Assembly: GCA_964552475.1 (NCBI GenBank)
Contig: CAZKFZ010000006.1
Span: 27-64,026 of the forward strand
DNA from: an uncultured Candidatus Saccharibacteria bacterium
GTDB lineage: Bacteria; Patescibacteriota; Saccharimonadia; CAILAD01; BJGX01
DNA: 64,000 nucleotides
Direction of reading: 5' to 3'
The notes under the pieces are model-generated. The model saw only the letters and a list, made by a program, of their open reading frames with translations, was not told where the DNA came from and did no database searches. Positions 4,275 through 47,591 of the stretch are shown piece after piece; within the stretch, counting starts at the first letter, position 1, and each line of letters begins with the position of its first letter. Made by a program: the position numbers and the translations under genes.

Positions 4275-5207
4275 TTACAAACAATGTAACTGGGATAATT
4301 TCATCATCAGATCTATTAGTGCATCGCTTGATTCGAGATCACCAGTCTTGATAGCCATATCGGTATCTATAATTAGTTGATAAGCGGTCTTTAGTTTATT
4401 CATTTCGATATTGTGTACCAAATTTTGAGCCTTGGTAGCAGCGTACGGCGACACCTCGAGTTCTTTTATCCATTTGTTACTACCAGATTGGTTGTCTTTT
4501 GCTAACACCAACACTCTGTATTGATAAACAATAGCGCCCAATATTTTTTGGTCTGGCTCACCAGAAAGAGCTAAGTTGTGGTATAGCTCAACTGCTTTCG
4601 GGGCATTACCTCTCATAATTGCATCGGTCATCATAAAGGCAGTTTGCTGTAGGTTGGGTACTACCAATTTATCAATAGACTCAACAGTGATTTGTGGGCT
4701 ATATAAAGCTAGTTTTTTTATCTCACTGCGTAGTTGCCATTGGTCACCACCCACCCGCTCAATGAGTAAGCTTATTGTGCGATTATCGGTCTTAGCGTGA
4801 CACTTTTCAATCTCACTCTTTACCCAGGCAACCAATTGAGGTGGCGAAAGCAAGGTGTAATTTTTTGAGTTTTTTAGTTGGGATAATTTTTTAAAATATG
4901 CACTACGTTTGTCTACCCTGCTATCGGTAATGATTACATTGGTAGAGTCAGGAATTGTGCTGAGTAATTCTTGTAACTTTTCTGGGCTAAGTTTTTGTGT
5001 ACTTAGATCTCGTACTATCATTAATCGACTACTAACAAACATCGGTACCACAGAAAGTGCATTGAGCAAATCACTTAAACTGCGCTCGCTCATATCAAAA
5101 GTTTCCATGTCTGAGCTACCACCAGTCTTTTTTATGTACTGTTGTTTGATATCGGCTATCCGCTCACTTATAGCAAAACTATTCTCACCAAAAAAGTAAA
5201 ATATCAT
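4275..5207 (-). CDS. holA: DNA polymerase III delta subunit
   Basis: 310 aa with N-terminal MIFYFFGENSFAISERIADIK, typical of the delta subunit N-terminus. Sits in a replication/repair neighbourhood. Confidence 0.6.
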   Translation of the reverse strand: MIFYFFGENSFAISERIADIKQQYIKKTGGSSDMETFDMSERSLSDLLNALSVVPMFVSSRLMIVRDLSTQKLSPEKLQELLSTIPDSTNVIITDSRVDKRSAYFKKLSQLKNSKNYTLLSPPQLVAWVKSEIEKCHAKTDNRTISLLIERVGGDQWQLRSEIKKLALYSPQITVESIDKLVVPNLQQTAFMMTDAIMRGNAPKAVELYHNLALSGEPDQKILGAIVYQYRVLVLAKDNQSGSNKWIKELEVSPYAATKAQNLVHNIEMNKLKTAYQLIIDTDMAIKTGDLESSDALIDLMMKLSQLHCL

Positions 5208-5252
5208 AGTATTAGTATCTGGTAATAATGACTAAGTATCAAGCTAAGCTAG

Positions 5253-6134
5253 TTAGTTCTTTGGTGGTTTTTGGCAATGAGTACATACATGGGTACCTCG
5301 CCCGGCTACTCTAATTTTTTGAATTAGCTTGCCACAGTTGGGGCAAGGTTGGCCATTTAGTCTAAATACCTTGGCAAACTTAAGATAGCTCCCTTTTTTA
5401 CCCTCGGCATCCACATAGTTTCTATCACTACTGCCACCCTGGGCAATACTCAGCTTCATTACGTCTATTATTGCACTAAATAACCTTTTGAGCTTAAAAG
5501 TACTAATATTTGCAACTTTTGTAGCTGGGTGAATGCGAGCTATAAACAAGCTTTCGTCGGCATAAATGTTGCCCACACCAGCTAAAACTGATTGGTCTAG
5601 TATAGCGGCTTTTATTGCTGAGCCACCGCGTTTTTGTAGTGCAGAGTTAAATTGTTCAAATGTATAGTCATCATCTAGAGGTTCAGGGCCAAGTTTGCTT
5701 AAAAACTTATTACTTTTGTAGAGGTCTTTAGATGGCTCTAATTTAACCCAGCCAAATTTACGCTGGTCGTTAAAATACAAAACTGAGCCATTTGTAAATG
5801 CAATTGTCACTCGGGTAGATTTATCAGGCAACTTACTTACTAAGCTATCATTGGGGTGACCCGCTCCAAAGCGTTTTTTGCCATCTACAAACACCAATTG
5901 CCCGGTCATTTTGAGATGAATTAGCAAACTATAGCCACTCTCAAGCACAATAATAACTACCTTACCTCGCCTGTCAACCCTCTCTATTTTGGTGCCGATA
6001 AGTTTTGTGCTTACAAGTTGTTTGGAGTTAGGAAATCCTTTGGGCCAATCAAAGTCGACAGACCTTACTCGTAAGCCGGGTAAAAACTGCTGCAAACCTA
6101 TTCGTACTGTTTCTACTTCTGGTAATTCTGGCAT
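5253..6134 (-). CDS. mutM: formamidopyrimidine-DNA glycosylase (Fpg/MutM)
   Basis: MPELPEVETVRIGL N-terminus (catalytic Pro2) and C-terminal CPNCG...CTHCQ zinc finger. The true start is the second ATG of the tracked ORF. Confidence 0.85.
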   Translation of the reverse strand: MPELPEVETVRIGLQQFLPGLRVRSVDFDWPKGFPNSKQLVSTKLIGTKIERVDRRGKVVIIVLESGYSLLIHLKMTGQLVFVDGKKRFGAGHPNDSLVSKLPDKSTRVTIAFTNGSVLYFNDQRKFGWVKLEPSKDLYKSNKFLSKLGPEPLDDDYTFEQFNSALQKRGGSAIKAAILDQSVLAGVGNIYADESLFIARIHPATKVANISTFKLKRLFSAIIDVMKLSIAQGGSSDRNYVDAEGKKGSYLKFAKVFRLNGQPCPNCGKLIQKIRVAGRGTHVCTHCQKPPKN

Positions 6135-6271
6135 ATAAACATTATAAACCAATCGCTATGTTTTCTCGTATTTACTGAGCTTTCACATATATTTGTAATA
6201 TTTATGTTGTTATGGTATAATACAGCAGTTAGTTCTTTGACAAACCTCTAAACTACGTTGAAAGGCGAGAT

Positions 6272-6907
6272 ATGCCTAGATATTCTGTTGTAGTAGTCTG
6301 TGAAGAAGAGCACCCTCAGCATGCTGAAGTCACACTTAAAGATCTTCGTCTCGGTCGTAAACCCAAAGAGCTGCATACCACCGACCAAACCATTCTCGGG
6401 TATGTGCTACAGACGCACATTGGTAACTTCAAGCGTAACTACGGCTGCCCCGATGCAGGCGGCAGTATCCGTACCGAGCAAGACCTGCCAGAGCTAAAGA
6501 TTCGTAAAGGCACTACTGTTGTTGAGTGTCGGGGTAACGTTGCTAACTACCTGCCGTATTTACAAGTCTGTAGCAACTGTGGGTGGAGGTGTGATAGTGG
6601 TACAGTAATGGGCGACGGTGAATTTTTCTGCTGGAATAAGGCATGTTGGGATAAATCAGTGGAACAATTTGACGCGAAAAAGCGTGTTACTATTGCGAAA
6701 CACCGCTCAGAAGGACTGTGTATATTCGATCAGGCTTGGATAGGCTTATGCTCAAACAAGGCACTCACCGGACATAGCGTCTGTAGCGACCATCTAGGCA
6801 CCAAGTGCCACTGTGGAGCTCAAGCGACCAGAGAATGTAGCCATGCCGGTTCTTTTGTGTGTGGCAGGCCACTGTGCGATGAGCACAAATGCCCGGCACA
6901 TCCTTAA
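6272..6907 (+). CDS. Cys-rich hypothetical protein (20+ cysteines in 211 aa), GC-rich gene
   Basis: ORF with many CxxC/CxC spacings (CSNCGWRCDSG, CHCGAQATREC, CGRPLCDEHKCPAHP). Composition is clearly more G+C-rich than neighbouring genes. Confidence 0.45.
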   Translation: MPRYSVVVVCEEEHPQHAEVTLKDLRLGRKPKELHTTDQTILGYVLQTHIGNFKRNYGCPDAGGSIRTEQDLPELKIRKGTTVVECRGNVANYLPYLQVCSNCGWRCDSGTVMGDGEFFCWNKACWDKSVEQFDAKKRVTIAKHRSEGLCIFDQAWIGLCSNKALTGHSVCSDHLGTKCHCGAQATRECSHAGSFVCGRPLCDEHKCPAHP

Positions 6908-7085
6908 ATGATACCGAGTATTCTACCTATTCAACATGGCCCCGCTCTATAAAAAAACTAGAGCGGGGCCTTATAATTACTGTTATTTATAATAATACTA
7001 CATATTGACTAATAAGTGATATTATGCTACTATTATTCAGATATCCAAACGGATTTGAACCTACTATTGTTGAAAGTGAGAGACC

Positions 7086-7280
7086 ATGAATAAGAGCACT
7101 ATTGTAGCTCTGGTGGTAGGTGTACTGTTGGTGCTGTTTCTAATTTTCGCCGTAAGCAAGTTCACTATTTTGTTCTTGCTACTTTTGTCTGTAACAATCA
7201 ACATCGTGCAGTACAAGATTCGCGACAAGAAAGAAAACGAGCCCAAGAGTGTGTCAGACGAACCTTCTGACTCACCGTAA
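7086..7280 (+). CDS. small two-TM membrane protein
   Basis: 64 aa: hydrophobic stretches VALVVGVLLVLFLIFAV and ILFLLLLSVTINIV, followed by a charged tail. Confidence 0.3.
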   Translation: MNKSTIVALVVGVLLVLFLIFAVSKFTILFLLLLSVTINIVQYKIRDKKENEPKSVSDEPSDSP

Positions 7281-7327
7281 ATAAGCTCGATTACCAAAAA
7301 CCAAATCACACCCGGAAAGGAGTGAAG

Positions 7328-7675
7328 ATGCCTAACATTCTGGTAGTGGATGACGAGCGAGTGCTTGATTTGCCAGGTGCTGTGCATGTGCTAACGTGCA
7401 GCGAGGCGATGGCATTTCTTAAAGGCCACCCAGTTATTGACGAGCTTTGGCTCGATCACGACCTGGGGCCCGACGAGGACGTAATGCGCCTGGTAGATCA
7501 CCTGTGCGAGATGGCTTTCTTTGAGATGGGTTATGAGATTGGCAGAATTGTGGTTCACACCATGAACCCGGTTGGTGCCGAAAACGTAATTCGCGCTCTT
7601 AACCGCTACTACCCTGTGCACCGCGTAAACGTTACACCCTACATTCTTGATATCAACGCAAACGAAAGAGTGTAA
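7328..7675 (+). CDS. stand-alone receiver(REC)-like domain protein
   Basis: NILVVDDE N-terminal strand and an LWLDHDLG acidic pocket resemble the CheY-like fold. GGAAAGGAG Shine-Dalgarno 7 nt upstream of the ATG at 7328. GC-rich. Confidence 0.45.
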   Translation: MPNILVVDDERVLDLPGAVHVLTCSEAMAFLKGHPVIDELWLDHDLGPDEDVMRLVDHLCEMAFFEMGYEIGRIVVHTMNPVGAENVIRALNRYYPVHRVNVTPYILDINANERV

Positions 7676-7676
7676 G

Positions 7677-8198
7677 ATGCTAACACTACGTGATTTGCTG
7701 CCAACTGCAGCCGAAAACGCACTAGTTGTGGTTGAGTGTGAGTTGCAGCAAGACACCACCCCTGAGGCGCTTAAGGGTATGGTGTCGGCGCTAACTCTGG
7801 CTAAAACCTTTGCTTATAGATGGGGTCAAAGTAGCGATACTTTATCGCCAGACACCACTATGAAGCTAGTACTACTTCTTGGTCAGTACGTGAAGCCTGG
7901 TCTCAATGACCGAGGCTGGCGCACCACGCCAGCTAGCTTTGCCGATATGACACAAGCTGTGCAAGCTAGCTCGCTAGAAAATGCCATGCAACAATGGTGC
8001 TTCTTGTTTGCTAGCAAGCTCTGGGATACTGCCGACGAAGCCTACTACGCCTTTGAGCGGATTCATCCGTTTAGAGACGGTAATGGCCGTGTTGGCTGGC
8101 TTCTGTGGCTTATCTATACCTACCTGACTACTGGTGAGTGGCTACAGGAACTCCCCCCGGAGTTTACTGAGCTTAAAACTCGCTTTGGTCACAACTAA
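7677..8198 (+). CDS. Fic/Doc-family protein (putative AMPylator/toxin-like)
   Basis: HPFRDGNGRVGW matches the Fic motif HxFx(D/E)GNGR. ATG lies 1 nt after the stop of the REC-like gene (TAAGATG), indicating translational coupling. Confidence 0.65.
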   Translation: MLTLRDLLPTAAENALVVVECELQQDTTPEALKGMVSALTLAKTFAYRWGQSSDTLSPDTTMKLVLLLGQYVKPGLNDRGWRTTPASFADMTQAVQASSLENAMQQWCFLFASKLWDTADEAYYAFERIHPFRDGNGRVGWLLWLIYTYLTTGEWLQELPPEFTELKTRFGHN

Positions 8199-8202
8199 AC
8201 AA

Positions 8203-8240
8203 CCCCACCTTCAAAACACTGAAGGTGGGGTTTTACTTTT
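8203..8240. terminator. bidirectional rho-independent terminator between the convergent Fic and cca genes
   Basis: ccccaccttc-aaaacact-gaaggtgggg stem followed by TTTTACTTTT. Confidence 0.65.
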
Positions 8241-8245
8241 GTATA

Positions 8246-9700
8246 TTATCGCTCCTGGGCAATAATTTGTTTTGCTATTTCAATTGCTTTGTCGCGGTCA
8301 TCAATAGTCAGTTCGCCGTTGGCGAACATTTCTTCTAGGTGATTTTTTACAATACCTATTAGCTTACCATCGGCCTTGGTAAAATTTGGTATAAGACCCA
8401 TTATTACCCTACCATCTATACCAAGGTCTCTCACTATACTAGGCTTTTGCACCTCTGCAGGCTCGGATTGGTGTTTTTGCCAAAGCTCAACAATAGCATC
8501 AAAGGCTGGTTTTTTGTGGCCAGTAGAGCCGTCTGGCAATGTTGAGTGGCTAGCCATTCCATCGGCCTCATGTAGCCTTACCAAGTCACCAAAAGCTGGG
8601 TGATTCATCATTTTCTTCTGATTAGCAGGGCGCATTTCTGGTAGTTGTTTTATATCTATGTGGTGGTCTATTAGCCACAATATATTCTCTTTTTGAGCAT
8701 TAGAGAATTTAAGTTTATTTAAGATTGGCCTAGCTAGCTCGGCGCTTGTTTGGGCATGACCATAAAATTTAAAATAATTTGGATCTTCGGTGGCTTCTTG
8801 AGTGTGTGGTTTGCCAATATCATGCAATAGCGTTGCCCACAAAAGCTCTTCACTAGCATCTGGCGGCAGAGCCTCCATTATAAGAAGTTGGTGTGTCCAG
8901 ACGTCACCTTCTGCATGAAATTTTGAGCCTTGCTCTACATCTTTTCCAGCGGTAAGCTCTGGTATATAAAAATCTAAAATACCTAGCTCGTCTAAATCTT
9001 CTAAGGCCTCTCGACGAGATAATGCCGTTTTGAAAATTGCTGTGAGCTCAGCTCTCATTCTTTCACCCGATATATCACCTATAGCACCCTCTTTTACAGC
9101 GTCTTTGAGCGCACGGTGCGTGCTTGGCTCGTAGCTAAACCCAAAGCGGTTTTTAAACCGAACTGCTCGCAAAATTCGTAATGGATCTTCTTGTATTCGT
9201 TCAGATGGGTCACCTACAAAACGAATAAGTTTATTATCTAAGTCACTAAGACTTTCACCTACGTAAAGTAGTTGATGAGTTACCGGATCAAGCGCCATAT
9301 TGTTGATCGTGAAATCACGCCTTTCTAGATCGTCCTCTAAAGAAACGTTGTCGGTATAAACCTGGGTAGCTTGACGACCCAAATGCGCATCTACATCTTT
9401 TCTATAGGTAGCTATTTCTAGCTCTACTCCATTCATTATTACCCTAGTAACCACATAGGCCTGCGAAGTGTCTGGAGTTTTAGATTTTTCAAATAGCTTC
9501 TCTATTTGTTCTGGTTTGGCATTGGTGGCAAGATCGTTATCTTTTGGCTCTAAACCAAGTAAAAGATCACGCACCGCACCGCCAACAATGACGGCTTCAA
9601 ATCCTTGGGATTGGAGTTTTTCATAAGCCAAAACTGCCTGATGCCACTCTGGGTGCATTTCGTCCCTAGTTTCGGCTGGATTGTATGGCATTGTCTCCAT
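8246..9700 (-). CDS. cca: CCA-adding tRNA nucleotidyltransferase / poly(A) polymerase-family enzyme with HD domain
   Basis: GGAVRDLLLG...DNDLAT nucleotidyltransferase head and an LLHDIGK HD motif. Confidence 0.8.
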   Translation of the reverse strand: METMPYNPAETRDEMHPEWHQAVLAYEKLQSQGFEAVIVGGAVRDLLLGLEPKDNDLATNAKPEQIEKLFEKSKTPDTSQAYVVTRVIMNGVELEIATYRKDVDAHLGRQATQVYTDNVSLEDDLERRDFTINNMALDPVTHQLLYVGESLSDLDNKLIRFVGDPSERIQEDPLRILRAVRFKNRFGFSYEPSTHRALKDAVKEGAIGDISGERMRAELTAIFKTALSRREALEDLDELGILDFYIPELTAGKDVEQGSKFHAEGDVWTHQLLIMEALPPDASEELLWATLLHDIGKPHTQEATEDPNYFKFYGHAQTSAELARPILNKLKFSNAQKENILWLIDHHIDIKQLPEMRPANQKKMMNHPAFGDLVRLHEADGMASHSTLPDGSTGHKKPAFDAIVELWQKHQSEPAEVQKPSIVRDLGIDGRVIMGLIPNFTKADGKLIGIVKNHLEEMFANGELTIDDRDKAIEIAKQIIAQER

Positions 9701-9824: not shown

Positions 9825-10364
9825 GTGTCGGTAATGACAAAAAACGATCTTGTATCGGTTCATTTGAGGTTCCGCACCTCGAGGGTGCCAGAAGGTCTAC
9901 CCGAGGCAGAGCCAGAAGATTTAGAAATTATGTTCAAAACTGCCACCGCTGTTCGTGGTGAAGAACTCTGGATGTCTGAAGGACTGGTAGATCTTGAAGA
10001 TCTATACTCCCAGATGAAAGCGGCTGGCTACCAGCTAGTGGCGGGTTATGCTCGCGAGCGCTACAACTCCTTCGGGGGTGTTAGACGTAGTTATGTTCTA
10101 CACTTCCACTTTGTTAGAGTTGAAGAAGCGAAGATTCCTGACAATCTTGAAGATCTGGAAAGTGCTTTGCATCAGCTCGTACAAAGGGCATATTGGAGAA
10201 CTCAGGTTTTTCGTAATCCTGGGGAGAATGGCACTTGGCTCAGCTTTGCCTGCACTAGTCGCGAGCAGCGTTTCGCCATGGAAGATCCGGCAAAGCCACG
10301 AGAAATTACTGCAAATGCAGTAGTTCACTTTAATGGTGGAGATCCTGTCCTAAAGTACAACTAA
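9825..10364 (+). CDS. hypothetical protein, GC-rich ORFan
   Basis: 179-aa ORF, no recognisable motif, followed by a strong terminator. Confidence 0.4.
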   Translation: MSVMTKNDLVSVHLRFRTSRVPEGLPEAEPEDLEIMFKTATAVRGEELWMSEGLVDLEDLYSQMKAAGYQLVAGYARERYNSFGGVRRSYVLHFHFVRVEEAKIPDNLEDLESALHQLVQRAYWRTQVFRNPGENGTWLSFACTSREQRFAMEDPAKPREITANAVVHFNGGDPVLKYN

Positions 10365-32617: not shown

Positions 32618-33202
32618 GTGCAAACCAAGTTCAAGATAATCCTACTGGTAACACTATTAGCCGGTCTGCTACTAACCGGCTGCAATGGTTTCGCTTACCA
32701 GCGGATATCCAATGGCCAGCCTGTTGGCTGGGGCTGTGCTACCGTGCACTATCGCATTGATGTGAGTGGCATGCCTAGCTTAGCCTGGGGTCAACACATA
32801 CACGATGCTTTCAGGGCCGCCTCGGCCGCCACGGGCATACCGGTGCACTACGATGGCCGTTTGCCGGCGGGTTACGCAGCTACCCACGGCTGGCAATCCA
32901 GCCCAGGCGACCCTGTGTGGGTTGGGTACAAACCGTTTGACGACCCACCGGTTGCTAGTAGTGGCTTCACCGAGCCGACCTTTTCTGGCAATCGCATTAC
33001 TGGTGGTAAGATTTGGTTCAACACCCTCTGGCGCTGGACTCGAACCAATCACAAACAGACACTTTGGCACGAGGTTGGCCATCTATTTGGTTTAGCCCAC
33101 CCTGTTGACAGCACCAATCAAGTTATGGGTGTTCATAGCCCACCCTATCAGTCTGGCGACTTGTTGGGATTTAGGGGTCTAAGACGGCCAAGCAACTGCT
33201 AA
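32618..33202 (+). CDS. metzincin-type zinc metalloprotease lipoprotein, GC-rich gene
   Basis: GTG start with AAGGGGG Shine-Dalgarno. LLLTGC lipobox. HEVGHLFGLAH matches the HExxHxxGxxH metzincin signature. Confidence 0.55.
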   Translation: MQTKFKIILLVTLLAGLLLTGCNGFAYQRISNGQPVGWGCATVHYRIDVSGMPSLAWGQHIHDAFRAASAATGIPVHYDGRLPAGYAATHGWQSSPGDPVWVGYKPFDDPPVASSGFTEPTFSGNRITGGKIWFNTLWRWTRTNHKQTLWHEVGHLFGLAHPVDSTNQVMGVHSPPYQSGDLLGFRGLRRPSNC

Positions 33203-33270: not shown

Positions 33271-33777
33271 CTACGTAAGCTCATTTACCATCTGCTCAAG
33301 TACTACTTGTGTTGCAGCGTCATTGCGAATAACCTTTACATCAAGCTTCTGCGCCTCCTCTATCAAATACTCTTGTATCATTCGCACTGCTGTAAAGTTC
33401 TGTTCTGATTCATCTGTTTCTTTTCTTTTTTCGAAAAACTGTCTTTTGTGTATGGCCTCATCAAGACAAACCAACAAAAATACTTTTGCTTTATTGCGAT
33501 ACGGCGCTGGGTCTATAAACACTGCCTCAAGAATCACTTTATCATGCTCAACAAGCACTCTATCTACATCTTTGCGCATATAGTCTCTTACGTAGAGAAG
33601 TCCTTTCACAGTATTCTCTTTTGTAAGTGAACCATACTTTCGCCAAACAAACTTTGTGGCTGGGTACGGCCTAATATAATCACCTTCTATAAATGGAATC
33701 CCAGTTTTATATTGTAGTGCTTTGCTAATAGTAGTTTTCCCTGCGTCGGGAACACCGTATATCAAAACTTGGCTCAT
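33271..33777 (-). CDS. P-loop NTPase / small kinase-like protein
   Basis: Walker A GVPDAGKTT at the N-terminus. 168 aa. Its start overlaps the stop of the upstream surface-protein gene by 4 nt. Confidence 0.5.
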   Translation of the reverse strand: MSQVLIYGVPDAGKTTISKALQYKTGIPFIEGDYIRPYPATKFVWRKYGSLTKENTVKGLLYVRDYMRKDVDRVLVEHDKVILEAVFIDPAPYRNKAKVFLLVCLDEAIHKRQFFEKRKETDESEQNFTAVRMIQEYLIEEAQKLDVKVIRNDAATQVVLEQMVNELT

Positions 33778-36700
33778 ATCCTACTATTTCGTTTATTGGC
33801 ATAGAGACTTTGATAACCAGCTATGACTAGCCCAGCAATACCTGCGCTAACTAAAGCAATAGAAAAAATAACAAATATAGTTTTGTGTATATTTATACCG
33901 GTTTTTGCTAGCAACGATTCACCAACTGCTAACCCGATGGGGTCAGTAATTTTGCCGTCGGTAACGCCATCGGTGTCTAAGTTGCTGCCGTCAGTTATTT
34001 GATAGCTGGCTTTGGTGGCACTTTGGCCACCAACACTTACGCCGATGATGTTAGCACCATCTAAATTGGTGTAGGTATTACTATTAGGGTTGTACTTACG
34101 GGCGACAAAGCCTTGTGTAGCTACACCATAATAGTATTGAGTAACTGTAGTAGTTATACCGGGAGTGCCACAACTGAGGCTAAAGTTCATTAGCCCAGCT
34201 GGATAGTTGTAGTTAAGGTCTGGGGTGGTATTTACTGATTCTGCGGCTGTTGAAGCGGCGGTAATAGAGCACTCACTGCCTACCTCGAGAGTGGCATACT
34301 GCCCGGTGACAGGGTCAACAAAACTCGCTACATTGGCTTGCTCAGAGTCCGGGGTGTTGTCGCCGTTGGCATCGCCATTGTTGGGGGCGGCGGATTCGAT
34401 TTCGCTAGGTACTCCATCGTTGTCGTCTACTGGCGCGTTTGGGTCGTAAGTGTGTGTTACCAGACTATTGTTACTGAGAGTACTGAATGGATCTGTTCCG
34501 GTACCAAAAGCCTGACCAAATGTTTGAGCTTCTGGGTCTAGCTCATAGAACACCATAGCGCGGTTAAGAGTTGGTTGAGTTTCATCTATAGACTCTATGT
34601 TCACAACTATCTTAAAACTTACTGTCTGCCCGTTTGCGATGCTATCAAATCCAAAAACACAGGCTATAAAATGGCCAACGGTGCCCGGAAATGGCCAATC
34701 TTCGTGCGGGTCCTCGCAGCTCACATTGTCACCTATTACAGCGCTATACTCAACACCGTGAGGCAGAACATCAAAAATATACGTGCCACCAACTGCTGTG
34801 TCGGGCCCATGGTTGGTAAGACCAATAGTATAGGTAGCTTGTTGACCATTTTTGATTGTACCTGGCGCATCAAGAGTCTTAGTGATCTCAATGTCTACAA
34901 CTGGTGTAGGTACAAATGTATCATCGTCGGTGCCGCAATTATTGCTTTCGTCGATATCAATAATAGTTTGGCCCCCTAACCGGATAGGAGGGTCTATACA
35001 TACTTGACTTGTATCTAAGTTTCCAAAATTTTGCACATCACCACTCAATATCAAGGTAAGTGTTTCGCCAGACTTCAATAGACCAGACCAGGTATTACCA
35101 TCAAAGCTACCAGGCGATGTCGCGGTGGTGTTGTCGGAGTCTACTGAATACATATATGGATAAAGTACATTATTTGCACCCTGGAATGTAAAATGGTCAA
35201 CGTCACCCGGCCCGTTATTAGTGACGGTAAAGGTGTATTGATTCGGTTCTCCAAATACAGCGCTCGTAGTGCCATCGTCGCTTGTTACGGCCAAGTCTGC
35301 TTGCGGTTCATATTTACCAAATTCACTAGTTGGGCCAAAACCCGTAGGACTATCTGGATCAATCAGTGTGGCTGTCGCTGCAAGGTGTGTGTGACCTGTA
35401 CCGCTAACAGTAGTGGTAAAGTTTTGGCTACCGGTGCCGGTACTGGTGGCTTCGTCGTAGCCAAGGAAGGTTTCCCCCTCACCATAACCTGTCGGGTCAG
35501 CCTCTGTATTACTAAAGAATTCTATACGATAGTCGCCAGCGGGCACATCTAAGCTAAACCCTATATCGGTATTACCAGCGTTTTCGGTGGCCTGAGTAAT
35601 AATTGGGAAATTGAGCAAATCATTTGGGCCTGAATCGCCATCACCGGAATCATTTGCGGTTGGATAATTGTCGCCACCAGAACCGCCGCCTAGTTTTATA
35701 CCTGTGTAATTATTACTAAAAATAGAGTTGCCTAGAAATGGACTGTGTCCACTACCATAAAAAATCATACCAATACCATTAGCACCATTGAAGGCAATAA
35801 TATTACCTTCGCCCTGGTTTGTACCGCCAATCAGTGGTGCGGCTAAGGACGTCAAATGCACACCGTACTCTCCATTCCCAAGATCTATGGTATTTGTAAG
35901 ATCTGTACCTATGTGATTACCCTGTATTCTTGCACCAACTCCATCACCCATCCAAATCCCACTCGCTGTGTTACCACCTATTACATTATCTTTTATTAAT
36001 ACTCCGCTACAATCACCGCTACAACCTATTGATAGCCCGTGACCAGCATTTGGTATCTTAGCCGTGCCTGTCGAGTTAGTTCCAATTAGATTATTCTCGA
36101 TAGTTGCGACATTAAATGAAAGTGCCACCCCATAATTACTATTGCCAGAAATAACATTGCCATCATTTATGCCTGGCCCCCCAATCATTAGATTAATAAA
36201 CCCACCATAGGCCCCAATACCGTTATTTGTATTTGGTAGAGCTGCCGTACCGGCATGGTTTGTGCCAATCTTGTTACCCTTAATTATTGTATTTGTGTGC
36301 GTACCATACCAAAAGCTAATACCCCTACCTATTACTCCAGATATCAAATTGTTAGCAATAGTGGTGCCTGTGCTAGGGGCTACATTTATACCGCCGTAAC
36401 TATCTATTCCTAATGATGTTGTACCAGCAATATCTGTGCCAACAATGTTATTTTTAAACATTGTGTTATTACCGTTAATCCAAAGGCCATATTTACCAAA
36501 TAGATTCATGTCGGTAGAATTATTTCCACCAACCGTTGAGTCATTTCCAGATACGCTTAGACCGATGCGTGTTACCGTGCTAACAGCTGTTGTACCATCT
36601 GCGCTCGTTCCAAAAAAATTACATCTTACTATATTGGTGTCGCTTTGGGTCTCCAAATATGCATTGCCAGTGCCAAACACCAGCCCATTGATCTCTGAGC

Positions 36701-37070
36701 CAGCAGCATTTGCGCTAGTAGTAATCAATGGGCTATTTTCTATAACAACTTTTAGGGTTGAGCTAGTGCCGTTACAAACAGACCCAGATTGAGACATCCC
36801 ATTTATTTTGAGTTGATCGGTAATAGTAATCCCGCCTGTTGTGAGTGCAATAGTATGCGGGCCGGCGCCGGAAATATTAAAGTCTATTTGGTCTGCTCCA
36901 GCATTATTGTTGGCATCGGTAATAGCTTGCCTTAAACTACCGGCACCAGCATCGTCGGTAGTAGTAACGGTATAAGTTGCAGCCTTGGCGGCGTGCGGCA
37001 GTGTTAAAAATCCAAAAGCTAGAGCAATGACCGGTAGTACTAAGAGGAGTTTGATCTTTGTTCCTGTCAT
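33774..37070 (-). CDS. 1098-aa secreted right-handed beta-helix surface protein with C-terminal LAxTG-type sortase signal
   Basis: Signal peptide. Dozens of G/N/T-rich parallel-beta-helix-like repeats (NNLISG, IKGNKIGTN...). C-terminal LAKTG plus hydrophobic segment plus KRNSRI tail. Confidence 0.6.
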   Translation of the reverse strand: MTGTKIKLLLVLPVIALAFGFLTLPHAAKAATYTVTTTDDAGAGSLRQAITDANNNAGADQIDFNISGAGPHTIALTTGGITITDQLKINGMSQSGSVCNGTSSTLKVVIENSPLITTSANAAGSEINGLVFGTGNAYLETQSDTNIVRCNFFGTSADGTTAVSTVTRIGLSVSGNDSTVGGNNSTDMNLFGKYGLWINGNNTMFKNNIVGTDIAGTTSLGIDSYGGINVAPSTGTTIANNLISGVIGRGISFWYGTHTNTIIKGNKIGTNHAGTAALPNTNNGIGAYGGFINLMIGGPGINDGNVISGNSNYGVALSFNVATIENNLIGTNSTGTAKIPNAGHGLSIGCSGDCSGVLIKDNVIGGNTASGIWMGDGVGARIQGNHIGTDLTNTIDLGNGEYGVHLTSLAAPLIGGTNQGEGNIIAFNGANGIGMIFYGSGHSPFLGNSIFSNNYTGIKLGGGSGGDNYPTANDSGDGDSGPNDLLNFPIITQATENAGNTDIGFSLDVPAGDYRIEFFSNTEADPTGYGEGETFLGYDEATSTGTGSQNFTTTVSGTGHTHLAATATLIDPDSPTGFGPTSEFGKYEPQADLAVTSDDGTTSAVFGEPNQYTFTVTNNGPGDVDHFTFQGANNVLYPYMYSVDSDNTTATSPGSFDGNTWSGLLKSGETLTLILSGDVQNFGNLDTSQVCIDPPIRLGGQTIIDIDESNNCGTDDDTFVPTPVVDIEITKTLDAPGTIKNGQQATYTIGLTNHGPDTAVGGTYIFDVLPHGVEYSAVIGDNVSCEDPHEDWPFPGTVGHFIACVFGFDSIANGQTVSFKIVVNIESIDETQPTLNRAMVFYELDPEAQTFGQAFGTGTDPFSTLSNNSLVTHTYDPNAPVDDNDGVPSEIESAAPNNGDANGDNTPDSEQANVASFVDPVTGQYATLEVGSECSITAASTAAESVNTTPDLNYNYPAGLMNFSLSCGTPGITTTVTQYYYGVATQGFVARKYNPNSNTYTNLDGANIIGVSVGGQSATKASYQITDGSNLDTDGVTDGKITDPIGLAVGESLLAKTGINIHKTIFVIFSIALVSAGIAGLVIAGYQSLYANKRNSRI

Positions 37071-44296: not shown

Positions 44297-46243
44297 CTAG
44301 GCTTTTTTAGCAGCTTTTCTTAATCGTCTTCTTATTTCTTCAGAATTGAGAGCATAGACCGAGCCAAGTATTAGTAAGCCCGCCAAGCCACCGCTCGCTA
44401 GATTACCTCCAGCGTTAGCCAAAGATCCGCCGCCAGGTGTAGTAGGTATTGTAACTGTTGCAGAACACCCCCCAGTTGTTTGTCCAGAGCCCGTTACGGT
44501 GGCTGTATAAGTTGTCGTGGCGGTAGGCGCTACTTCTACCTCACCCCCACCTACTGGCGTAACTGTACCTATGTCTTGGTTTATAGACATACTTGTGGCA
44601 TTTGTAGATGTCCATGTAAGAAATGAGCTTTCACCACTAGTAATAGAGGCGGGGTCGGCTGTAAGTGTACAGCTAGGACTTGCCGGAGTATCATTGACAG
44701 TAATAGTCGTCGTACTAGAGCCCTCCCCTCCAGGGCCCGTCACCTTACATGTATACACTCGCGTAGCCGCCGGCGTCACCGTAACACTACCGCTGGCTAC
44801 TGGATTGACTGACACGTCAGTGCCTGCCGTTACAGTATCTATAGTAACATCTGTGGCATCTGTGGTTGTCCAGCCTAGGGCTGAACTACCGCCTGCACCA
44901 ATGGTGCTTGGGGTGGCTGTCAGCGTACAAGTAGGTGCCGGGGTATCGGTAACCGTAACAGTAACGGCATTACAGTCAGCTGTTCCACCAGGGCCCTCTA
45001 CAGTGCCAGAATAGGTAGTGGTAACGACAGGACTCACCGATGTACTACCACTAGCTACTGGATTAACTTCGCCTATGCCGTTGTCGAGTGTAAGTGTTGT
45101 GCCATCAGTGGTTGTCCAGCCAATCGACGAGCTCCCACCACTCGCAATAGTACTCGGTGTAGCCGTCAGCGTACAGGTAGGTGCGGTGATAAAACTAGTT
45201 TGATCAGTACTCCAAAATGGGCGGTAGCTATAACTTGATAGAGCACCACTATTGAGCACGCCCGGGCCACCATCGGCAGCGGGCACATTGGCCACCAACT
45301 GTATATTGCTACCATCGGCGTCCATGGTAACAAGCTCGGTCAAATTATTACTGGGGTTGAAGCGCACCGCAACTATTTGTGTTCCATCTGGAGAATAATA
45401 GCCACCTATATAGTCATTGTTGTCGTTGGTAATGGCTGTCGCAACACCACCAGGCGTTCTAGTGGTTGTCATTAATTGATCGCCTTGGCCTGATACCTTA
45501 CTATTACAATTAAATTGATCGTTACTTGTATAGAGTAATGTTTTTCCATCATTAGGGTGAATATCGTTGAGTCGGCAAACTAAGTCTTGTGTTGAAGCAT
45601 CTGTAGTAACATCTAGCGCCGTAACTTGGTTGGGCGTAGAAGCGTCAACGCGTCTTATATTATTTTGGTTGGCAATATACACATGTGCCCCACCGGGGCC
45701 CCATACAGGGTTTTGGCTATTAGTGCCGTTAATTTGATTGGTTAAGGTAATATTGTTGCTACCATCGGCATTCATCACATGTACTTCGCGTTCGCCACCA
45801 TTATTGGTAGTGTAGACTGCAAATGCTATTTTGGAGCCATCATTGTATACCGCTGGTTCTTGCATGCTTCTAGTACCGCTACCAGAAGGGCAGGTAATTT
45901 GAGTACCAGCTGGCGTAAGGGCATTGGTAACGCTAAACATACCCACGTTGCTTAGAGTACCAGAAGTACATTGGTTGGGATAATATATATCTGTTCCGGC
46001 CGGGTTATACACCGCCGCCCATTTGTTCGAACTGACAGTACTTGGTATATTGGTGTCTTTTATATCAGTGCCGTCGGCAAATATGGAGTAGTGAGTGCTT
46101 GGTGCGGCCCAAAGAATACGGCCATTTACGCCAGGAGTTTGAGCGCGTGCAACGCCAAAAGGTGTAAGCAAAAGCGTTACACCCACAATTGTAGAGATAC
46201 TTAATCTAAATAATTTCTTGATATGATTCTGTATTTTTTTCAC
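44297..46243 (-). CDS. secreted surface protein: TolB-like beta-propeller repeats plus three ~70-aa Ig-like repeats, C-terminal TM anchor with variant sorting-like motif
   Basis: Signal peptide. DGS/NADGSN repeats. Three repeats sharing TCTLTATPSTI.GGSS.LGWTTTD. C-terminal SLANAGG...LAGLLILGSVYAL plus RRRLRKAAKKA. Confidence 0.5.
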   Translation of the reverse strand: MKKIQNHIKKLFRLSISTIVGVTLLLTPFGVARAQTPGVNGRILWAAPSTHYSIFADGTDIKDTNIPSTVSSNKWAAVYNPAGTDIYYPNQCTSGTLSNVGMFSVTNALTPAGTQITCPSGSGTRSMQEPAVYNDGSKIAFAVYTTNNGGEREVHVMNADGSNNITLTNQINGTNSQNPVWGPGGAHVYIANQNNIRRVDASTPNQVTALDVTTDASTQDLVCRLNDIHPNDGKTLLYTSNDQFNCNSKVSGQGDQLMTTTRTPGGVATAITNDNNDYIGGYYSPDGTQIVAVRFNPSNNLTELVTMDADGSNIQLVANVPAADGGPGVLNSGALSSYSYRPFWSTDQTSFITAPTCTLTATPSTIASGGSSSIGWTTTDGTTLTLDNGIGEVNPVASGSTSVSPVVTTTYSGTVEGPGGTADCNAVTVTVTDTPAPTCTLTATPSTIGAGGSSALGWTTTDATDVTIDTVTAGTDVSVNPVASGSVTVTPAATRVYTCKVTGPGGEGSSTTTITVNDTPASPSCTLTADPASITSGESSFLTWTSTNATSMSINQDIGTVTPVGGGEVEVAPTATTTYTATVTGSGQTTGGCSATVTIPTTPGGGSLANAGGNLASGGLAGLLILGSVYALNSEEIRRRLRKAAKKA

Positions 46244-46361: not shown

Positions 46362-47591
46362 ATGGACAAATATCGGTTATTCAATGACGACATGGCTCCT
46401 CTAAGCCACAACTTATCTTCGGGTGTTTCTAGATTTATAAAACCAATAGACGAAGATAGTGAGCAGATTGAGGGTTATTTTGTATCGCAAAGTGACACCA
46501 ATCAAGTACAGATGTCGCCACAAGCTATGGAAAAAATAGCCTTATATTTTGCTGAAGAACAAGATAATATCGACTATAGCCCTAGCGAAGCATCAGCCAG
46601 AACAATTGCGCTTCAGGCCAGATTACGTGAGTCGCGCAAATCAAATCGTCACTCTGCGGTGCCTAGCTACTTCTCCCCTCCATCGGCCACTACCACTCAC
46701 CACAATAGTGGCAAAAAAAGAACCAACACCGCCAAGGCTGATTTTTTGCGCGCCAAACGTACCCATACTGCCATGCAAGACGACTACCAGCTTGCAGCTA
46801 GCTCGGCAGAGGTGGACTTAATGGTGAGTATTCCTGGGCAAGTCTATACCCCCGGTAAGTCTGGCCACGAGCAACACCTGCAGCGGCGGGCTCAAGCTAG
46901 CTATCAGCGTACGCACGGCCATAAACGCCATGCCTATGTGCCCGATACTGACGAGCGAAACCTCATTAATAAACACATCAAAAACCCTCACGCCAAAACC
47001 ATCCTTACCGCCGTGGCCACACTGACCGGGCTGTACTTAATTTTTGGCCCAATGCTACCTGGCCTGCTCAAGGTATCATCATCTGTGGTAGGAACTGGCA
47101 ATAAAAATCATGCACAAGCTGACCAGTCTGAGTCTAAGGCCATTGCCCAAAGTGGCCTCACCCCACCGGCCGAGGCCCCCAAAGAGTTGGCGGTCAATCA
47201 GGTAGGTTGGCTCAACATACCAGTTATTGGCGTTGGCGCACCCATAGTAGAGGGTAAAGACGACAATGCTATGACTTATGGCATTTGGCACCGCCCCGGC
47301 ACCGGCACCCCTCTTACAGATAGCAACACGGTTTTGGCTGGTCATAGATATCAATATGTAAACGGTCCGCGCACCTTTTATTCGCTAGACAAAGTAAAGG
47401 TGGGTGATCCTGTAGAGGTAAAATGGGGTGAGCAGACTTTTCGTTACAAGGTAGTGCGCACCTTTGTGGTAGAAAAAGACAAGATGTATATTGAAGCTCC
47501 CACTACCGTGCCACTTTTAACTATCTATACCTGTACTCCGCTCTGGACGTCTACCAATCGCTTAGTAGTGCAAGCTACACCAATTACATAA
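46362..47591 (+). CDS. sortase (transpeptidase; class E-like by substrate motif) with ~210-aa cytoplasmic low-complexity N-terminal region
   Basis: C-terminal catalytic domain has His in VLAGHR, Cys in LLTIYTCTP (TLxTC) and Arg in TNRLVV. A TM helix (ILTAVATLTGLYLIFGPMLPGL) precedes it. Confidence 0.7.
   Translation: MDKYRLFNDDMAPLSHNLSSGVSRFIKPIDEDSEQIEGYFVSQSDTNQVQMSPQAMEKIALYFAEEQDNIDYSPSEASARTIALQARLRESRKSNRHSAVPSYFSPPSATTTHHNSGKKRTNTAKADFLRAKRTHTAMQDDYQLAASSAEVDLMVSIPGQVYTPGKSGHEQHLQRRAQASYQRTHGHKRHAYVPDTDERNLINKHIKNPHAKTILTAVATLTGLYLIFGPMLPGLLKVSSSVVGTGNKNHAQADQSESKAIAQSGLTPPAEAPKELAVNQVGWLNIPVIGVGAPIVEGKDDNAMTYGIWHRPGTGTPLTDSNTVLAGHRYQYVNGPRTFYSLDKVKVGDPVEVKWGEQTFRYKVVRTFVVEKDKMYIEAPTTVPLLTIYTCTPLWTSTNRLVVQATPIT

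Follow-up and report, generated by a model that had tools for sequence, protein, structure and literature searches.

The locus and its two cassettes

In this Candidatus Saccharibacteria genome, mutM and cca bracket a variable slot, which holds the locus described here. The DNA analysed is a continuous stretch of 64 kb, called the window below, and all coordinates refer to it. The region at 6272-8198 (plus strand) was confirmed to contain the three genes of a preliminary description of this DNA, together with a fourth gene (7086-7280) that had been overlooked. The slot contents in the window are two separate, unrelated cassettes, one with a Cys-rich gene and the other an operon for a small protein with two hydrophobic segments (TM64), a receiver-fold protein (cREC) and a Fic protein. 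The features are as follows.

6193-6221, plus strand: promoter-like site of the Cys-rich gene, TTGTAA-17-TATAAT with TG extension (consensus scan, 10/12; pattern match only)
6272-6907, plus strand: Cys/His-rich protein, 211 aa (ORF)
6938-6970, plus strand: perfect 12-bp GC-rich hairpin with a 9-nt loop, 3' of the Cys-rich gene (inverted-repeat search)
7005-7033, plus strand: promoter-like site of the TM64-cREC-Fic operon, TTGACT-17-TACTAT with TG (consensus scan, 9/12; pattern match only)
7086-7280, plus strand: TM64, 64-aa protein with two hydrophobic segments and a charged tail (ORF, hydropathy profile)
7328-7675, plus strand: stand-alone cREC of divergent receiver fold, 115 aa (117 aa if started at GTG 7322), PF20274
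7677-8198, plus strand: single-domain Fic protein, 173 aa, PF02661
8201-8232, both strands: bidirectional intrinsic terminator with a 13-14 bp stem and T-rich tails (terminator scan)

The earlier impression that these genes are richer in G+C than their surroundings was borne out when composition was computed. The GC content of 6272-8198 is 0.475 (47.5%) versus 0.409 (40.9%) for the whole window, which corresponds to the 99.2nd percentile of equal-sized windows. GC and GC3 are 0.494 and 0.46 for the Cys-rich gene, 0.509 and 0.57 for the cREC gene, and 0.504 and 0.49 for the Fic gene, against a GC3 of 0.34-0.37 for the flanking mutM, holA, cca and polA. Minus-strand ORFs at 7391-7759 and 7064-7387 were taken as shadow ORFs opposite GC-rich coding sequence.

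The strong bidirectional terminator that had been noted is indeed present at 8201-8232 when both strands are scanned (-24.6/-27.8 kcal/mol, z ~ -6.2), and it is common to the convergent Fic and cca genes. The left flank of the islet is a divergent promoter region with no terminator. An Rfam search of 5800-8600 returned nothing at E<=1. The three tRNAs of the whole window all lie away from the locus, and neither an integrase nor a tRNA adjoins the islet. An exact 12-nt repeat, TTTACTGAGCTT, is found at 6171 and 8163 and brackets the islet. It was considered as an att site, and this reading was dropped because the repeat is missing from a sister genome that carries the same islet, and because a single pair of this kind would be no surprise in 2.7 kb.

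The preliminary description had treated the three genes as a single islet. This unity did not hold: in relatives, the Cys-rich gene and the cREC-Fic operon can each be found without the other, and in the window a hairpin and a promoter-like site lie between them. The hairpin at 6938-6970 (-25.4 kcal/mol, z -5.98) is probably a terminator that divides the two cassettes; the terminator scan, which accepts loops of up to 8 nt, did not call it. Relatives, whose loci carry L-numbers as labels (L001, L076 and so on), have either cassette, both or neither. The Cys-rich gene is present without cREC-Fic in L021, cREC-Fic is present without the Cys-rich gene in L018 and L020, and L022 has neither cassette and a different 126-aa ORF in the slot.

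The Cys-rich protein has no recognisable family, as stated before, with zero matches in Pfam, NCBIfam, PHROGs and PADLOC. A word search found only 3 clusters, and an exhaustive profile search gave 573 matches, mostly to the C-terminal module. These C-terminal ~60 aa (about residues 148-210) are a probable Zn-binding module that occurs in several hundred unannotated proteins. A structure model of the Cys-rich protein, based on a 3-sequence alignment, reached a pLDDT of 32 and was unusable.

Organization of the TM64-cREC-Fic operon

TM64 is encoded by the first gene of the operon and is followed by cREC and then Fic. It is kept in L001 and L015-17 (E ~1e-27), including the sister genome, and small transmembrane proteins of like build are found next to cREC in L003, L004, L020 and L230. 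For cREC, the ATG at 7328, with AGGAG 5 nt upstream, is preferable as the start; lengths of 112-116 aa are found for the database copy and for every homologue. The TAAgATG junction between cREC and Fic can be read directly from the sequence, as claimed earlier, with TAA at 7673-7675, a gap of 1 nt (g) and the ATG at 7677. A purine-rich stretch, GAAAGAG, lies 6 nt 5' of this ATG. cREC and Fic are small adjacent genes with a common promoter-like site and terminator, which is the layout of type II toxin-antitoxin loci.

cREC is a receiver-like protein

The preliminary description took the cREC product for a phosphoacceptor receiver domain. Its receiver-like character is well supported by Pfam, where PF20274 (cREC_REC) matches model positions 3-87 of 88 at E=1.5e-16, scoring 61.3 bits where the cut-off is 27. 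The same domain is found in all 18 homologues, phrog_1479 matches at E=9e-17, and cREC also matches proteins of Gordonia, Bacillus and Streptomyces phages. Invariant in 18 cREC sequences are D8, D9, R11, W41-L-D43-H-D45-L-G, H77 and N80, and the acidic residues of receivers (DD after strand 1, Asp after strand 3) are present as D8, D9, D43 and D45. Neither a solved structure nor, in the searched literature, an experimental study of cREC was found.

Phosphoacceptor signalling is unlikely, in spite of these similarities. In a model along the lines proposed earlier, a phospho-accepting cREC would sense a signal via a kinase or small phosphodonor and switch a Fic AMPylase, in keeping with the conserved receiver fold, the acidic pair, the Asp at the acceptor position and the placing of a stand-alone receiver beside an enzyme. 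We consider this model highly improbable. According to its describers, histidine kinases are never associated with cREC (Iyer et al. 2021, Viruses 13:63, PMC7824862), and kinase domains are absent from the 25 commonest families among 81 sampled neighbours of cREC relatives. Response_reg (PF00072) does not match cREC even at E<=1, and solved response regulators match weakly (E=0.015-0.7), with D43 aligned on the acceptor Asp. No conserved Lys is seen near the C-terminal end in the cREC alignment. In addition, AMPylation is itself uncertain for a Fic protein without the second motif Arg (PMC3667792).

Instead, cREC has been predicted to be a counter-signal phosphoesterase, with cyclic phosphates of nucleotides, ADP-ribose derivatives or RNA ends as substrates, and not modified proteins; its published contexts are NAD+/ADP-ribose-processing enzymes, RNA ligases (2',3'-cyclic ends) and WYL proteins (PMC7824862). 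The window operon, which consists only of TM64, cREC and Fic, has no NAD+/ADP-ribose-processing, RNA ligase or WYL genes. Ligase and WYL domains are also absent from the 25 commonest families among the 81 sampled neighbours of cREC relatives. One of these neighbours is a NUDIX protein, and, Fic apart, no neighbour family occurs in more than 2 of the 81.

The Fic protein lacks the second motif arginine

Profile and structure searches agree with the earlier identification of the downstream gene as Fic. PF02661 matches at E=2e-9 (38.6 bits versus a cut-off of 24), and a profile search against the PDB finds FICD at 3.6e-12. The AF2 model has a pLDDT of 94.1 and a pTM of 0.90, and its best Foldseek match is FICD (TM ~0.6), followed by SoFic and NmFic (probability 1.00, TM 0.5-0.6). 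On the strength of the model, we are confident that the protein adopts the Fic fold. A GWRTTPASF stretch, the candidate for the beta-hairpin flap ahead of the active-site helix, aligns with GRFRTTQVLVG of FICD, and the model has short strand residues at ~87 and ~93. A BFVD fold search gave generic Fic matches only, a tblastn search against cultured phages gave no match, and an exact-sequence look-up of the protein returned no record.

The motif HPFRDGNGRVGW (IHPFRDGNGRVGW, read directly from the sequence) comprises H130-P-F-R-D-G-N-G-R138-V-G-W141, and the reported replacement of the final Arg by Trp is confirmed (W141). H130, F132, D134, G135, N136, G137 and R138 are invariant in 16 aligned Fic sequences. 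None of the 16 has the second motif Arg, and its position is occupied by W, D, Q, K, A or F. It is also non-Arg in many viral Fic relatives, and such short Fic proteins are common in viral contigs.

In canonical Fic AMPylators, the second motif Arg holds the ATP gamma-phosphate (PMC3667792), and this role and the docking of the inhibitory Glu are both documented (PMC3667792, PMC8401265). Phosphorylation and phosphocholination are known for non-canonical Fic variants (PMC8401265). AMPylation, as proposed for the module before, is not assured, since the Arg for the ATP gamma-phosphate is missing throughout the subfamily. A regex search for the strict (S/T)xxxE(G/N) motif found none in Fic, cREC, TM64, the Cys-rich protein, or homologous or intervening ORFs; only a TAAEN-type helix-capping motif was present. 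The absence of an inhibitory helix, first noted for the two proteins, extends to every component and to the homologues, and the contrast that had been drawn with the usual pairs of Fic toxin and short antitoxin stands.

Recurrence of the cREC-Fic pair

The cREC-Fic pair co-occurs elsewhere, in close relatives as well as in distant phage-like and viral contigs, and in both gene orders. In every close relative with genomic context, cREC adjoins Fic. The adjacent pair is found in L001, L015-17 and L019, with proteins about 85-89% identical, and in L018/L025, L020, L004 and L003, with Fic 38-51% identical; cREC identity is 62-65% in L018, L020 and L004, and L003 is more diverged. On a phage-like contig (L076), Fic precedes cREC with an ATGA overlap, and cREC and Fic are 45% and 33% identical to those of the window. 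In L097, two small genes lie between Fic and cREC. Two viral loci have Fic followed by a cREC-like gene (L105) and a cREC-like gene followed by Fic (L143). We found no published description of the pairing, and Fic/Doc is unmentioned in the main text of PMC7824862.

Fic is near cREC in 3 of 80 metagenomic cREC loci, the other 77 having no Fic nearby, and 3 of 80 viral Fic loci have a cREC-like neighbour. Most cREC relatives are thus without a nearby Fic, and most short phage Fic proteins are without cREC nearby, so that the link is not obligatory for either family. Nor is it general, as Fic was found within 5 kb in 0 of 45 viral cREC loci.

Loss of the two genes is asymmetric. In the Saccharibacteria clade, where flanking DNA was available, an intact Fic without a cREC or cREC-like gene was never seen. 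The reverse is represented by L230, where cREC is present without Fic, and by L020, where cREC is intact and Fic no longer has its catalytic His (IRPFEDGNGR) and lacks further conserved residues. In L005, an intact Fic is followed by a degenerate cREC-like gene whose product no longer has the acidic residues (DD to DR, D43 to G, D45 to C). The pattern, with Fic lost or inactivated and cREC kept and the opposite not seen in the clade, fits Fic as the dangerous partner.

These observations bear on the possibility that cREC and Fic are independent accessory genes of phage type that travel together, cREC degrading signals derived from cyclic phosphates or ADP-ribose and Fic separately modifying a cellular or viral protein, with neither controlling the other. 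Such a reading would be in line with the predicted counter-signal phosphoesterase role of cREC (PMC7824862), with the heterogeneity of cREC neighbours otherwise, and with the occurrence of both families in viral contigs, where they are common and usually apart. However, stop-start coupling is seen in two gene orders (TAAgATG in the window, ATGA in L076), Fic of the Saccharibacteria clade is never seen without cREC, the loss pattern is asymmetric, and L005 keeps a catalytically dead cREC-like gene beside an intact Fic. We therefore regard independence as rather unlikely.

Age, selection and origin

Compared with the sister genome, dS is 0.71-1.09 for the flanking genes and 0.54-1.26 for cREC, Fic and the Cys-rich gene. 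The dN/dS values are 0.094 for cREC (dS 0.54), 0.093 for Fic (dS 0.93) and 0.155 for the Cys-rich gene; cREC and Fic are under strong purifying selection. Furthermore, the cREC-Fic cassette holds the same slot in lineages with cca proteins that are only 60-66% identical. Since dS matches the flanks and dN/dS is ~0.09, cREC and Fic are long-resident and functional, and not recently acquired. Of the horizontal acquisition suggested in the preliminary description, the compositional anomaly is real, whereas a recent entry is contradicted by dS within the range of the flanks, the low dN/dS and the shared slot in diverged lineages.

Adjacency within Saccharibacteria could partly reflect shared descent of one locus. 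Taken further, the adjacency might have no functional meaning at all, being inherited synteny in one lineage together with chance neighbours in gene-dense phage regions. Most adjacent pairs do come from one Saccharibacteria locus type, and the other cases are few (three in each of the two samples of 80 loci). Nevertheless, chance is an unlikely source of the pairing: the Fic subfamily is rare (15 clusters among 5.8 billion), and yet three co-occurrences were found in ~0.5 Mb, which makes a chance origin of these very unlikely. The tight coupling was kept despite the changed gene order, and both genes are under strong purifying selection. An adjacency devoid of function is, in our view, very improbable.

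The position of the slot invites another explanation, namely that the pair serves in RNA damage or repair alongside the CCA-adding/HD enzyme, with cREC opening 2',3'-cyclic phosphates and Fic modifying RNA or a nucleotide with a nucleotidyl or phosphoryl group. The cca gene (PolyA_pol and HD domains) lies next to the pair in convergent orientation in the window, L015, L018 and L020, cREC has been linked to RNA ligases and 2',3'-cyclic ends (PMC7824862), and the missing second Arg permits a non-ATP donor (PMC3667792, PMC8401265). We gave the cca link less weight because the slot also carries unrelated cargo (the Cys-rich gene only in L021, the 126-aa ORF in L022). Phage-like cREC-Fic loci have no cca nearby, and we know of no Fic protein that has been shown to act on RNA. 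Overall, this explanation seems quite improbable.

A possible phage-derived conflict module

Together, the above observations lead us to propose, tentatively and with slightly less than even confidence, that TM64-cREC-Fic is a phage-derived, long-resident and selected conflict module, with cREC either in control of Fic or reversing it, in the manner of a toxin and its controller. The phage link is suggested by the phage matches of cREC and by the abundance in viral contigs of short Fic proteins without the second Arg. In this proposal, Fic would be the effector, a minimal enzyme in which the catalytic His, the Mg-binding Asp and the GNGR anion nest are intact, and as such should use a nucleotide donor to attach a phosphoryl-linked group to a target hydroxyl. 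The missing second Arg, the docking point of the inhibitory Glu, would fit the absence of an inhibitory helix or FicA-type antitoxin. The control function would be assumed by cREC, translationally coupled to Fic, either as a binding partner of Fic or as a hydrolase of the phosphodiester that Fic puts in place. cREC would then be an antidote or eraser, as in toxin-antitoxin pairs with an enzyme as antitoxin, and a small two-TM protein of TM64 type is a frequent third member.

We infer the physical or functional interaction of cREC and Fic from gene context. Their action on each other or on one target is proposed likewise, as are the harmful role of one of them, a donor and a target for Fic, and any catalysis by cREC; Fic toxicity is assumed. 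The degenerate cREC of L005 argues against a purely catalytic eraser and is compatible with control by binding. Moreover, the published substrate prediction (nucleotides, ADP-ribose derivatives, RNA ends; PMC7824862) counts against cREC acting on modified proteins.

A more far-reaching version, which we hold to be rather unlikely, is that cREC and Fic without the second Arg represent an unrecognised class of Fic regulation. Here, the place of the inhibitory helix would be taken by a phosphoesterase of receiver fold, the donor of Fic would be a compound other than ATP (for example NDP-X or NAD+/ADP-ribose), and cREC would reverse or gate the modification. A donor of the NAD+/ADP-ribose type would fit the other cREC contexts.

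The prevailing view is that nearly all Fic enzymes are held in check by an inhibitory glutamate, the partner of the second arginine of the motif. A whole Fic subfamily, mostly from phage contigs, has neither, and one clade always encodes this Fic with cREC. If cREC is the controller, this would be a different way to keep Fic safe and a first handle on cREC function, and if the proposed regulatory class is real, it would offer the first concrete cREC substrate. The ultra-small Saccharibacteria would, in that case, have domesticated a phage writer-eraser pair. The reduced genome of an epibiont retains the module under strong selection between housekeeping genes, and the system is small (64 + 115 + 173 aa) and easily testable.

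Comparison with known systems

The window Fic shares its fold with Fic classes I-III (VbhT-VbhA, SoFic, NmFic, FICD/HYPE), and its His, Asp and GNGR nest are intact. It differs from them in the second Arg, which is Trp in the window and Lys, Ala, Gln, Asp or Phe in relatives, in the lack of an (S/T)xxxE(G/N) helix in cis or trans, and in its length of only 173 aa, without wHTH or TPR extensions. Like FicTA, the window pair is a small, translationally coupled two-gene system, but FicA is a three-helix antitoxin, whereas the partner here is a 115-aa receiver-fold protein.

With the published cREC systems, the window protein shares clear PF20274 membership, the acidic residues, the phage association and the lack of a kinase partner (PMC7824862). 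Its own partners are different, a Fic enzyme and a small membrane protein.

The anti-phage defence protein SoFic (NF046030) shows a local likeness around the active-site loop (PADLOC 1.8e-9, NCBIfam 2e-5). Membership was rejected, as NF046030 scores 23.7 against a cut-off of 550 and covers residues 122-147 only, and the PADLOC match is confined to residues 93-147. The window Fic is half the length of SoFic, matches it over 26-55 residues and has no N-terminal inhibitory motif.

A non-canonical motif is shared with Doc/Phd of phage P1 and with AnkX, and the phage connection with the Doc/Phd group. The protein is not a Doc member, as HxFx(D/N)(A/G)NKR is not present and GNGR is found instead; phrog_577 matches weakly (E=0.003). 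The partner is not Phd-like.

Toxin-antidote pairs of a writer and an eraser are known from DarT-DarG and from the Legionella pairs AnkX-Lem3 and SidM-SidD. The logic proposed here is alike, with a transferase of a phosphodiester-linked group and a protein of hydrolase fold as its potential remover. There is no homology between these pairs and that of the window, and cREC as an eraser is a pure hypothesis; to judge from the degenerate cREC-like gene of L005, binding may be enough.

Gene content of the mutM-cca gap

The window comes from a Candidatus Saccharibacteria genome, and its cca protein shares 90%, 66%, 64% and 60% identity with those of four Saccharibacteria MAGs. The preliminary description listed three plus-strand genes; all three are present in the mutM-cca gap, together with a fourth, TM64.

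Features of the mutM-cca locus
5253-6152, minus strand: mutM, divergent left neighbour
6193-6221: promoter-like site 5' of the Cys-rich gene
6272-6907, plus strand: Cys/His-rich gene, 211 aa
6938-6970: strong, perfect 12-bp hairpin 3' of the Cys-rich gene
7005-7033: promoter-like site 5' of TM64
7086-7280, plus strand: TM64, 64 aa, two hydrophobic segments
7328-7675, plus strand: receiver-like gene (cREC), 115 aa
7677-8198, plus strand: Fic gene, 173 aa
8201-8232, both strands: hairpin with a terminator score on each strand, z about -6.2
8246-9700, minus strand: cca, convergent right neighbour

The TAAgATG junction between cREC and Fic, the Fic motif IHPFRDGNGRVGW and the strong bidirectional terminator (8201-8232) were found as first described. 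The receiver-like product had been given 117 aa; with AGGAG 5 nt upstream of the ATG at 7328, and homologues all of 112-116 aa, 115 aa is more likely. An Rfam search of the locus matched no family.

Gap contents differ among relatives (L numbers denote related loci or contigs from database searches; L015 is the sister genome used for comparison).

Genes at this position, by genome or locus
Window, L015-17, L019: Cys-rich gene, TM64, cREC, Fic
L021: Cys-rich gene alone
L020: TM70, cREC, TM73, Fic
L018: cREC, 58-aa ORF, Fic
L022: unrelated 126-aa ORF
L230 (Saccharibacteria contig, 4619-6171): mutM, cREC, 74-aa two-TM protein, ORF179 homologue; Fic and cca both missing

It follows that the Cys-rich gene is a unit separate from the cREC-Fic operon, and that the islet consists of two cassettes occupying a variable slot. 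Between cca and polA lies a 179-aa ORF (9825-10364, 47.6% GC) without family match, whose position is shared by conserved copies in L015, L018, L022 and L230.

Composition and age of the locus

The higher G+C noted earlier was borne out: the locus has 47.5% GC versus 40.9% for the window (99.2nd percentile among equal-sized windows), and GC3 of its genes is 0.46-0.57 versus 0.34-0.37 in flanking housekeeping genes. This, together with the flanking terminator, had been read as a signal of horizontal acquisition. Selection and age were assessed by comparing the window with L015.

Divergence between the window and L015
cREC: dN/dS 0.094, dS 0.54
Fic: dN/dS 0.093, dS 0.93
Cys-rich gene: dN/dS 0.155, dS 1.26
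Flanking genes: dN/dS 0.04-0.11, dS 0.71-1.09

The cREC, Fic and Cys-rich genes are functional and have diverged in step with their flanks; a recent transfer is thereby ruled out. Every lineage examined shows the excess of GC3. The window's other GC-rich patches likewise carry genes of accessory or surface type: an unknown 194-aa ORF (32618-33202), a DUF11/beta-helix protein (33774-37070), an unknown 648-aa protein (44297-46243) and a sortase-domain protein (46362-47591). High GC thus appears to be a mark of the genome's accessory gene pool and not of a new insertion.

The slot is flanked neither by an integrase or tRNA gene nor by a conserved att repeat. The islet is bracketed by an exact direct repeat of 12 nt, TTTACTGAGCTT (6171-6182 and 8163-8174, the sole two copies in the window); its reading as an att site was rejected, as it is absent from L015, and it is probably due to chance.

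The Cys-rich protein

Four profile libraries left the Cys-rich protein unmatched, in line with its initial description as lacking a recognisable family. A word search returned only 3 clusters and an exhaustive profile search 573 relatives, a few of them full length and likewise without Pfam or PHROG family. Most share only a C-terminal Cys/His module of about 60 residues (window 6720-6907, the C-terminal third of the ORF) with the pattern C-x-F-x3-W-x-G-x-C ... C-x2-H ... C-x-C-G-x-Q-A ... VCG-x-P-x-C. This module, often found in stand-alone proteins of 60-130 aa, may be an undescribed zinc-binding domain.

The cREC and Fic proteins

Profile searches upheld both family assignments. The 115-aa protein matches Pfam cREC_REC (PF20274; E=1.5e-16, 61 bits, cut-off 27) and also phrog_1479, and D8, D9, R11, W41-L-D43-H-D45-L-G, H77 and N80 are invariant across 18 homologues. 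Cultured phages of Gordonia, Bacillus and Streptomyces contain homologues (13 matches, H1-H13, 31-42% identity), annotated solely as hypothetical proteins. Actinobacteria, Gordonia among them, include bacteria on which Saccharibacteria live as epibionts.

Phospho-gated signalling would fit the position of D43 on the acceptor Asp when cREC is aligned with solved response regulators, which match weakly (E≥0.015). The domain was defined as a divergent receiver that is never histidine-kinase-linked (Iyer et al., 2021; PMC7824862), and we regard such signalling as highly improbable. The same work predicts that cREC processes cyclic phosphates (cADPR, 2',3'-cyclic ends) and reports it beside NAD+/ADP-ribose enzymes, RNA ligases and WYL proteins; its main text does not mention Fic. 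An RNA-end pathway together with cca would suit this predicted chemistry; the slot beside cca carries unrelated genes in L021 and L022, and we consider the pathway quite improbable.

The 173-aa protein matches Pfam Fic (E=2e-9) and yields an AlphaFold model of pLDDT 94 and pTM 0.90; FICD/HYPE, SoFic and NmFic are its top structural and profile matches. SoFic or Doc membership was rejected, the model matches being local and far below threshold. The catalytic His, Asp and GNGR nest are invariant in the alignment. The final Arg of HxFx(D/E)GNGRxxR is missing in 16/16 aligned members, as in many short Fic proteins of viral contigs; the Saccharibacteria clade has Trp at this position, and the others have Lys, Ala, Gln, Asp or Phe. 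In a competent Fic this Arg contacts the gamma-phosphate of ATP, and in an inhibited one it is the partner of the inhibitory Glu (PMC3667792; PMC8401265); its loss makes a donor other than ATP plausible. No (S/T)xxxE(G/N) motif occurs in the module proteins, as stated previously for the receiver-like and Fic products, nor in their homologues, which is consistent with the missing Arg.

Association of cREC with Fic

The window-type Fic subfamily is very rare, at 15 clusters among 5.8 billion, and cREC adjoins Fic in all close relatives having context. The pair also recurs elsewhere, where its absence would have spoken against the preliminary description: 3/80 metagenomic loci picked for cREC carry a Fic of this subfamily (including L076 and L097), and 3/80 viral loci picked for Fic carry cREC or cREC-like genes, two directly adjacent. 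These recurrent loci share 28-45% identity with the window proteins, and on the phage-like contig L076 the order is Fic then cREC, with an ATGA overlap. Chance synteny might be suggested by the 77/80 metagenomic cREC loci without a nearby Fic; among 81 sampled cREC neighbours every other Pfam family occurs in at most 2, and we judge chance very unlikely. Independent phage accessory genes would accord with the lack of Fic near cREC at 45/45 viral cREC loci and with several short phage Fic genes without cREC; given the tight coupling in both gene orders, we hold this to be unlikely. The link is real, facultative for both families and fixed in the Saccharibacteria clade.

Small TM proteins built like TM64 adjoin cREC in L003, L004, L020 and L230, in some cases separating it from Fic, and TM64, first gene of the operon, may be a third component. 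Our literature search returned no paper that connects cREC with Fic, and none that reports Fic in Saccharibacteria.

Proposed working and comparison with known systems

The module combines a Fic with an intact catalytic core and without the usual brake, a conserved and tightly coupled cREC partner, and a small membrane protein as frequent companion. We infer that Fic would be a potentially harmful effector restrained by cREC, because decay is asymmetric. The L020 Fic orthologue (8493-9008) reads IRPFEDGNGRVGW, with the catalytic His replaced by Arg (IRPFEDGNGR) and further changes at conserved positions (E121G, and a flap Pro to Val); beside an intact cREC, this gene seems to encode an enzyme that is decaying or has been inactivated. 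In L230 cREC is kept and Fic is gone, and among loci with flanking DNA every intact Trp-clade Fic had a neighbour of cREC type.

Restraint might be enzymatic, with cREC hydrolysing the phosphodiester installed by Fic, which agrees with its predicted phosphoesterase chemistry, or cREC might control Fic by binding. Binding is favoured by L005, where a 120-aa cREC-like gene (634-996) downstream of an intact Fic gene has lost the acidic positions conserved in other cRECs (DD to DR; WLDHDL to WLGHCF) and possibly encodes a pseudo-enzyme partner; strict conservation of the acidic pocket outside L005 favours catalysis or ligand sensing.

The module is rare, small, clean and testable, and bears on both Fic regulation and cREC function. 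Its cREC falls outside the contexts described for the domain (PMC7824862), and neither class I-III Fic regulation nor SoFic or Doc matches it in their defining features. Its nearest working likeness, as judged entirely from gene context, would be a Fic toxin-antitoxin or writer-eraser pair.
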